NCBI GenBank assembly: GCA_045612865.1
Contig: JAZKZW010000082.1
Coordinates: forward strand, 5,135 to 69,134
Direction: 5' to 3'
DNA from: Eubacteriales bacterium
Lineage (GTDB): Bacteria > Bacillota > Clostridia > Oscillospirales > CAG-272
Length of the DNA: 64,000 nucleotides
The position numbers and the translations under genes were made by a program. Shown piece after piece: positions 34,975 to 35,934 of the stretch; position 1 is the first letter of the stretch, and each line of letters begins with the position of its first letter. Below the pieces are notes generated by a model that had not been told where the DNA came from, searched no databases, and worked only from the letters and a program-made list of their open reading frames with translations.

Positions 34975-35194
34975 ATGGTGTAAAAATTAAATTAAACAAG
35001 ATACCTAAAAAATATGCTCCAAACCAATTTACCTTACCAGTTTTATAAAGAACATTAGGATTTAAAAAAGATAATCCACAATCTTCCTGCAAATTAAAAC
35101 CAACCATAATAACTGCCATAAGAACACCAGCCACAAGCGAGTATGAAATTATAAGAAAATATATAGTAACTCCCATTATTTTATCTCCTTCCAA
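34925..35194 (-). CDS. small membrane protein
   Basis: 89 aa, hydrophobic. Confidence 0.3.
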   Translation of the reverse strand: MEGDKIMGVTIYFLIISYSLVAGVLMAVIMVGFNLQEDCGLSFLNPNVLYKTGKVNWFGAYFLGILFNLIFTPCAVFYWIYKLCTVGRR

Positions 35195-35934
35195 CCATTT
35201 CGTTCAATAATCCGTCGCATATTCTCTATTGTTAATTTATCAAAATCATAATATGGTATTCTAACTAATTTTATATTGTTTTCAATACACCAATTATTTT
35301 TAAACGCATCTCTCTTTTGTAATCCTTGAAAATCATACCTATCATTGCGAATTTCGTGAAAATGTTGCTCTCCATCATACTCAATTAACAGATTTTGTTC
35401 TGGCAAGTAAAAATCAAAAACTAATTGTCTATTAGTCTCTGGGAATATACAAGAATCAAATCGTTTTTGTGTAATAAAAGGGATTTGCAGTTCTAACAAC
35501 AAAGAAATAATTTTTTCTTCACCTTTTGATTTTGCACAACCACAAGAGATTGTTGCCTCTTTTTCACGAGTTAAATTAGAGGTTGATACAAAAGTTATAT
35601 TACCACAATCACATAAGCATTTCCAAATTACTCCACCACGATTATCTCGTTTTCCACTATCTTCTTGTACTAATAATTTACCAAAACGCTTTCCTTCTAA
35701 GGGGAGTTTACGTCCTAATCCCGCTTGACGACGATTTTCTGCTGCCATGCAGCCACAGGAAAAGGTGTGACCGTTTCTTAAATTATCACTTCTAACCACG
35801 CAAGTATTACCGCAATCACACTAACAATTCCATGCAACATGACTCCTCCCGTTGGGCGTTTGAATATTTTCTGCTTGAGATAGCACCGTTAGTTTTCCAA
35901 ATCTTTTATTTGTTAAATCAATTTTCTTTGGCAT
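35176..35934 (-). CDS. CxC zinc-finger + Vsr/EDxHD-like putative homing endonuclease; one in-frame TAG at 35821-35823
   Basis: ATG 35934 with CAGGAGG RBS; WNC[TAG]CDCG aligns with WLCQCDCG / WKCQCDCG in paralogs; IEYDGEQHF...RIPY. Confidence 0.6.

Follow-up and report, generated by a model that had tools for sequence, protein, structure and literature searches.

In-frame TAG codons, very probably read as glutamine, in three Vsr-like homing-endonuclease genes of a large phage

The 64,000-nucleotide stretch of DNA analysed here (positions 5,135 to 69,134 of contig JAZKZW010000082.1; the window) contains a homing-endonuclease-like gene, gene A, with a single TAG codon in its reading frame, and two paralogs, B and C, with nine and five. 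The locus raises the question of whether these codons terminate translation or are read as an amino acid and, in the latter case, which one and to what effect. The window is the early or replication region of a large phage, the host of which is probably a member of the Bacillota. The phage very probably uses a code of the translation table 15 type, in which TAG is never a stop and is decoded as glutamine by a tRNA-Gln-like, phage-encoded suppressor tRNA(CUA), with A, B and C being functional free-standing homing-endonuclease-type genes. TAG is the only stop codon that interrupts the three frames, the genes are under purifying selection, a tRNA-Gln-like suppressor is encoded in the window, TAG interchanges with CAA and CAG, and the proteins have a nuclease fold. 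The phage is a further example of an alternative code already known in phages.

Reading frames and fold of the three proteins

35176-35934, minus strand: gene A, homing-endonuclease-like, 252 codons plus TAA; the single TAG is codon 38 (35821-35823), between Cys37 and Cys39
Within gene A: zinc-ribbon repeat 1, about residues 8-64; zinc-ribbon repeat 2, about residues 79-135; Vsr-like nuclease, about residues 136-252 (35179-35529)
24949-25761, minus strand: paralog B, 270 codons, two zinc-ribbon repeats and a Vsr-like nuclease
59671-60600, plus strand: paralog C, 309 codons, three zinc-ribbon repeats and a Vsr-like nuclease

The TAGs are codons 12, 55, 60, 95, 102, 142, 188, 210 and 263 in B and codons 30, 78, 115, 215 and 305 in C. 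Together the three genes hold 15 TAG codons in frame and no TAA or TGA, whereas each of the other frames (five per gene) holds 7-35 TAA and TGA codons. Since an AGGAGG Shine-Dalgarno sequence also lies upstream of the ATG in all three, A, B and C are not random open frames. An initial annotation of this DNA had described three paralogous frames with one, nine and five TAGs, and the frames and motifs confirm this; its range for C (59671..60598) identified the gene correctly and stopped two bases short of the TAA, the true end being 60600. The repeats read WNC-TAG-CDCG in A, WSLCQCDCG in B and WLCQCDCG and WKCQCDCG in C, and the nuclease cores carry IEYDGEQHF or IEFDGRQHY together with R-I/V-PY. 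C lies on the strand opposite to that of its neighbours, an arrangement also found in the related contig L090. A database entry for the C protein (P0241, from an NCBI contig of 105,973 bp) shows glutamine at all five TAG positions, indicating that code 15 has already been applied to this record.

A and B, compared with their orthologs, have ratios of nonsynonymous to synonymous substitution rates (dN/dS) of 0.05-0.19. Codons 1-37 of A, which precede the TAG, differ from the related contig L001 by nine synonymous and no nonsynonymous changes, so this stretch and the rest of the frame are translated into one protein. The stop codons of 60 window genes are TAA (40) and TGA (20) and never TAG, and TAG is likewise absent as a terminator from the 110 genes called in related contigs. 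The gain in open reading frame (ORF) length over the whole window on reading TAG, TGA or TAA as sense was uninformative, because in AT-rich DNA random ORFs grow longer whichever stop is read as sense.

Comparison with PHROGs places A, B and C in homing-endonuclease or HNH-endonuclease families (E 1e-22 to 1e-46). Pfam produced sub-threshold matches only (DUF5889, DUF559 and DUF2726), and a hidden Markov model (HMM) search of the PDB did not detect 3r3p and gave the Vsr-like domain of AbaSI as its best match (E 0.12), so that the nuclease domain could be placed only by comparison of folds. The AlphaFold2 model of P0001, a database protein 97% identical to A, has a mean predicted local distance difference test score (pLDDT) of 89.6 and consists of two beta-rich, cysteine-containing repeats followed by a C-terminal alpha/beta domain. 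The Vsr/EDxHD-like nuclease of the initial annotation is borne out by this model and the fold comparison at the level of fold. Among 41 homologs the cysteines C37, C39, C41, C60, C106, C108, C110, C131 and C133 are invariant and C62 is conserved in at least 90%; the other invariant residues are E139, D174, E185, G188, Q190, H191, D209 and K212. E139, D174, H191 and D209 follow, in sequence order and spacing only, the EDxHD composite motif of I-Bth0305I, and the 17-residue interval from D to H equals that from D196 to H213 of I-Bth0305I.

Pfam searches of the N-termini found no NUMOD or helix-turn-helix (HTH) domain; these regions instead contain two or three cysteine-rich beta-strand repeats with invariant cysteines. 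In this the window proteins differ from I-Bth0305I and the EDxHD family, which includes the free-standing phage 'Hef' enzymes (PMC3239194), since two or three zinc-ribbon repeats with the consensus W-x-C-x-C-[DE]-C-G ... S-C-G-C are present rather than NUMOD or HTH modules. I-Bth0305I is moreover intron-encoded, whereas no group I intron was found in the window at Rfam gathering thresholds and the three genes are free-standing; their nuclease role is predicted from sequence and fold. A, B and C are members of a known Vsr-like homing-endonuclease class with a different DNA-binding module. This combination of zinc-ribbon repeats and a Vsr-like nuclease has thousands of database matches, many of them metagenomic, and appears from these matches to be a widespread, poorly annotated homing-endonuclease architecture.

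Comparison of gene neighbourhoods suggests mixed signals of mobility. The context of A in L001 differs from that in the window and in the related contig L003, which is consistent with movement of this gene between phage genomes. B is syntenic in related phages, downstream of a phosphoesterase gene, and C also keeps its position in relatives. The similarity between L001 (5095-6019) and the window (35187-36111), 81% at the nucleotide level, covers gene A and about 180 nt upstream only; two further matches are short (51 and 106 nt), and the genes flanking A are unrelated. The upstream neighbour of A is common to the window and L003.

The suppressor tRNA and the residue inserted at TAG

22444-22519, minus strand: amber suppressor tRNA, anticodon CUA (ARAGORN; Rfam tRNA 46 bits)
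45026-45105, minus strand: phage tRNA-Gln(UUG), nearest paralog of the suppressor (ARAGORN)

ARAGORN identifies 25 tRNAs in the window, one of which has the anticodon CUA. This tRNA has an encoded CCA end, lies away from the main tRNA array and is of class I, its short variable arm excluding the Leu, Ser and bacterial Tyr types. It is identical to tRNA-Gln(UUG) at 61 of 76 positions (score 32; 15 for the next best of the window tRNAs), and the two have in common the pairs G2-C71 and G3-C70, G73, the D-arm GCCAAGyGGCU and the anticodon-loop context CU-NNN-AC. From this resemblance the suppressor is probably derived from a tRNA-Gln. Like the supE-type amber suppressor of Escherichia coli it has a tRNA-Gln-like body with a CUA anticodon, and it keeps U35, A37, G73, G2-C71, G3-C70 and a weak 1-72 position; the list of identity elements used here is that of E. 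coli GlnRS. It differs from the supE type in being phage-encoded, in its A.A mismatch at 1-72 and in its presumed Bacillota host.

ARAGORN labels tRNAs with this anticodon 'Pyl', an assignment that was rejected. A tRNA-Pyl is recognized by a short D-loop, a 3-nt variable loop and a long anticodon stem, together with pylS and pylBCD, whereas the window tRNA folds into an ordinary cloverleaf in which the D-loop is normal and the variable region is 5 nt long, and no PylS or Pyl biosynthesis genes turned up among the annotated window ORFs. Four phage contigs from IMG/VR have the same anticodon arm as the suppressor, and two of them, L092 (135 kb; 198-273) and L095 (123 kb; 10234-10387, two tandem copies), carry CUA tRNAs according to ARAGORN. 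The short related loci retrieved contained no suppressor tRNA, probably because they do not reach it.

Proteins from related contigs are deposited already translated with TAG as glutamine, which makes their glutamine residues circular as evidence, and DNA codons were compared instead. Codon 38 of A is CAG in L001 and L002 and CAA in L003 and L004, and L001 in turn has TAG opposite the sense glutamine codons 25, 70, 190 and 206 of A. The codon alignment of B took in orthologs L085-L089; B and L085 (86% identity) have four TAGs in common, and six of seven exchanges between TAG and a sense codon are with CAA or CAG, the seventh being with AGA. At codon 102 of B glutamine is found in all 120 database homologs, and in six sequences examined at the DNA level the codon is always TAG or CAA. 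The family-invariant glutamine of the E-Y-D-G-x-Q-H motif (Q190) is TAG in L001, L086 and L090. Pooling the close pairs (A with L001 and L003, B with L085 and L086), glutamine codons account for 17 of 25 exchanges and lysine codons for none. TAG sites were also scored in a Codetta-like manner on a distant profile of 49 TAG-free IMG/VR homologs (30-45% identity); over 75 TAG sites from other recoded IMG/VR loci the log-odds are 51.8 for glutamine and 13.7 for lysine.

Synthesis of full-length A, B and C would require read-through of one, nine and five TAGs and would depend on the suppressor. The suppressor would be charged with glutamine by a host enzyme, the host itself presumably using the standard code.

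There are precedents for phages that read TAG as glutamine and encode suppressor tRNAs, backed by metaproteomics (PMC9523058, 10.1101/2021.08.26.457843, PMC10607447); for crAss-like phages glutamine at TAG has been observed by liquid chromatography-tandem mass spectrometry (PMC9523058), and a Bacillota-associated phage group with a suppressor tRNA-CUA has been described (PMC10607447). The known code 15-type phages comprise crAss-like and Lak phages, the Jade, Sapphire, Garnet and Topaz clades and the Phassvirus group. The window resembles them in having TAG in a subset of genes only, standard-code early or replication genes and no TAG terminator (PMC9523058, PMC10607447, 10.1101/2021.08.26.457843), and also in its suppressor tRNA-CUA beside a large tRNA complement and in the alignment of TAG with glutamine in homologs. 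It is unlike them in that the recoded codons lie almost all in homing-endonuclease genes, which is accounted for by the late genes falling outside the 64 kb. About ten window genes are fragmented by standard-code gene callers, and this genome and its relatives should be annotated with translation table 15.

Several observations weigh against this assignment. TAG in L001 also lies opposite Ala64 and Trp248 (TGG) of A, and between C and L090 (62% identity) only three of nine exchanges involve glutamine codons, as expected at variable sites. On the distant profile the 13 scorable sites of the window do not separate lysine (1.6) from glutamine (-1.3), because these sites are too variable at 30-45% identity. 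The suppressor has an A1.A72 mismatch where the tRNA-Gln of the window has a U1-A72 pair. GlnRS is absent from many Bacillota, in which GluRS and GatCAB take its place, and these may reject a tRNA with a CUA anticodon. The suppressor gene is located within an apparently early transcription unit, a poor fit to strictly late suppression, and the evidence for TAG as glutamine in this genome is at the nucleotide level, not the protein level.

Distribution of TAG codons and alternative readings

Twenty-nine in-frame TAGs occur in the 60 window genes, and 26 of them lie in seven of nine homing-endonuclease genes, namely three Vsr-like, three GIY-YIG and one LAGLIDADG-type. Apart from A, B and C the genes concerned are as follows.

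54449-55258, minus strand: GIY-YIG homing endonuclease, four TAGs
57764-58594, minus strand: GIY-YIG homing endonuclease, two TAGs
11070-12227, minus strand: gene with a C-terminal GIY-YIG domain, four TAGs, all in the N-terminal part
18491-19423, minus strand: LAGLIDADG-type endonuclease, one TAG, between two topoisomerase II subunit genes (16118-21818)
30124-30732 and 49842-50480, minus strand: HNH endonucleases without TAG
7407-8411, minus strand: Sak4-like ATPase, one TAG (codon 13), one of just three found outside endonuclease genes

Of the glutamine-type codons, TAG accounts for 20% in the endonuclease genes and 0.75% elsewhere (Fisher p = 3e-14). The gene at 54449-55258 reads KVYIG-TAG-S where two window paralogs read YIGQT and YIGQA, and the position of the gene at 18491-19423 suggests insertion of a free-standing homing endonuclease between two essential genes. 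In related contigs tail-fibre-like genes (Gly_rich_2, Laminin_G_3, Peptidase_S74) and CHAP/SH3 lysin genes carry one to nine TAGs each, in the regions L001 11133-15951, L003 1070-8513 and L088 8024-9835, and the early genes carry none. This combination of standard-code early genes and recoded late genes is the pattern published for recoded phages. Within this genome early replication genes free of TAG contrast with interspersed endonucleases in which TAG accounts for about 20% of glutamines; the contrast lends support to the published proposal of a temporal separation of gene classes by recoding and points to selfish endonucleases as some of the most heavily recoded genes. The concentration of TAG in endonuclease genes, and in tail-fibre and lysin genes of relatives, would tie their translation to the supply of suppressor and so may delay or limit it.

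The concentration in endonucleases could also have no regulatory role, with TAG read as glutamine all the same. AT-rich, weakly selected genes that pass horizontally between recoded phages, or genes of foreign origin, would by drift gain CAG-to-TAG changes that core genes with high expression purge. This is a serious possibility, if somewhat short of an even chance. Its support comes from composition, with a GC fraction of 0.33 in endonuclease genes against 0.40 elsewhere and CAA:CAG counts of 96:7 against 240:156, and also from the altered context of A in L001, where similarity is limited to the gene and its immediate upstream region, from the fast turnover of TAG positions between orthologs and from the two HNH genes without TAG. 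It is opposed by the retention of at least one TAG in all orthologs of the three genes that were examined, the adjacent early genes in related contigs having none, and by the clustering of TAGs in tail-fibre and lysin genes of relatives, which is the late-gene pattern of recoded phages. In the TGA-recoded Agate phages, in addition, Borges et al. (10.1101/2021.08.26.457843) had already noted an early gene containing an intron endonuclease that is preferentially recoded.

At the other extreme, the amber codons might serve as a gate on translation, or 'code firewall', dedicated to unrelated selfish endonucleases (Vsr-like, GIY-YIG and LAGLIDADG) in early operons. This seems unlikely; a strict late-gate model calls for caution in view of the apparently early transcription unit that holds the suppressor and the rapid turnover of TAG positions. 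If it were true, the nucleases would be made only when the suppressor is abundant and would be untranslatable in standard-code hosts or competing phages, so that code 15 would affect when mobile endonuclease genes are expressed as well as the range of hosts open to them by horizontal transfer.

Much less probable is that TAG is sense but specifies another residue, such as lysine, glutamate, tryptophan or pyrrolysine. The comparison of paralogs within the window gives this reading some support. The initial annotation had taken the TAG of A to occupy the glutamine position of the W-x-C-Q-C-D-C-G repeat of B and C, regarding this as direct evidence for glutamine and an alignment of TAG with variable residues or gaps as evidence to the contrary. 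In the three-way alignment the TAG of A does face Q in C but E in B. Only two of the 15 TAGs oppose glutamine in a paralog (codon 38 of A, Q in C; codon 215 of C, Q in A), the other 13 facing K, R, N, H, E, S, D, G or gaps, with K, R, N or E the most frequent. Nor is the position a conserved glutamine: the six other repeat units of the window have Q in three and E, I and L in one each, and among 120 database homologs the residue at codon 38 of A is L in 34, Q in 31, K in 18 and E in 14. This variable position sits between two zinc-ligand cysteines. By the annotation's own standard the paralog alignment is thus inconclusive, and as evidence for glutamine it appears suggestive but weak. Its conclusion that TAG encodes glutamine stands on other and stronger grounds, those of the tRNA and the ortholog DNA.

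Also in favour of another residue are the marginal lead of lysine over glutamine at the 13 window sites on the distant profile, the TGG opposite TAG in one ortholog, a tryptophan at codon 38 of A in the database protein P0003 and the 'Pyl' label of ARAGORN. These are outweighed by the exchanges between close orthologs, in which glutamine codons predominate and lysine codons are absent, by the family-invariant glutamine sites, which carry TAG, CAA or CAG only, and by the strong preference for glutamine at the 75 TAG sites of the wider family. The tRNA-CUA furthermore resembles tRNA-Gln and not tRNA-Lys, tRNA-Glu or tRNA-Trp, without the architecture of tRNA-Pyl and with no PylS or Pyl biosynthesis gene among the annotated genes, so that a residue other than glutamine is very unlikely.

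Finally, the notion that A, B and C are decaying pseudogenes of selfish endonucleases with true premature stops, which could appeal to the frequent degeneration of homing-endonuclease genes, to the fragmentation of the three ORFs under the standard code and to database entries that call a truncated 207-residue version of A (P0014), is effectively refuted by the restriction of interruptions to TAG in an AT-rich genome, the lack of frameshifts, the purifying selection (including the wholly synonymous changes before the TAG of A), the intact zinc-ligand cysteines and catalytic residues, the retention of TAG positions or their exchange with glutamine codons in orthologs and the encoded suppressor tRNA.

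Genomic setting

Genes of the window encode RecJ, a primase, a DnaB-like helicase, a Sak4-like protein, an NAD-dependent ligase, both topoisomerase II subunits, RNase H, a phosphoesterase, a polynucleotide kinase, an RNA ligase, a sigma factor and NAMPT, and there are 25-26 tRNAs. The nearest cultured relatives of the replicative helicase are those of Bacillota phages (Enterococcus, Bacillus SPbeta-like and Geobacillus; 37-38% identity), and one large protein matches only the huge uncultured phages LR756500/501/503 (40% identity). A megablast search with 24 kb of the window (12000-36000) against 50,697 deposited phage records gave no nucleotide match.

Other RNA genes are the following.

42702-43321, minus strand: full-length ROOL RNA (Rfam RF03087, 161.6 bits), within the tRNA array
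47186-47257, minus strand: tRNA found by Rfam and missed by ARAGORN
52677-52751, minus strand: tRNA-like gene (Rfam tRNA 45 bits; ARAGORN four-base anticodon 'agtt'), no encoded CCA

The anticodon loop of the second, CTGTCAC, suggests a tRNA-Asp(GUC). The four-base anticodon of the third implies an enlarged anticodon loop, and possible readings of this gene are an aberrant tRNA-Asn(GUU), a tRNA resembling frameshift suppressors and a degenerate copy.

The sigma-70-type promoter TTGATTTTTATAAAAAAATATGATATAAT occurs 16 times in almost the same form, always on the minus strand, with a -35 element TTGATT and an extended -10 element TGnTATAAT, both near consensus.

Promoter copies 1-8, minus strand: 513-541, 15649-15677, 21852-21880, 26858-26886, 29164-29192, 30692-30720, 33281-33309, 37198-37226
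Promoter copies 9-16, minus strand: 39690-39718, 45565-45593, 47433-47461, 51007-51035, 53353-53381, 53561-53589, 56686-56714, 62864-62892

None of the 16 copies lies directly upstream of A, B or C. Judging from nine aligned copies, the promoter is usually followed by a ribosome-binding site and an ATG, and it is conserved in the related contigs L087 and L090. The copy at 30692-30720 falls within the 5' end of the called ORF of one HNH gene (30124-30732), the start of which is probably downstream of 30692. The copy at 51007-51035 is upstream of the gene at 50613-50972, which precedes the other HNH gene (49842-50480).

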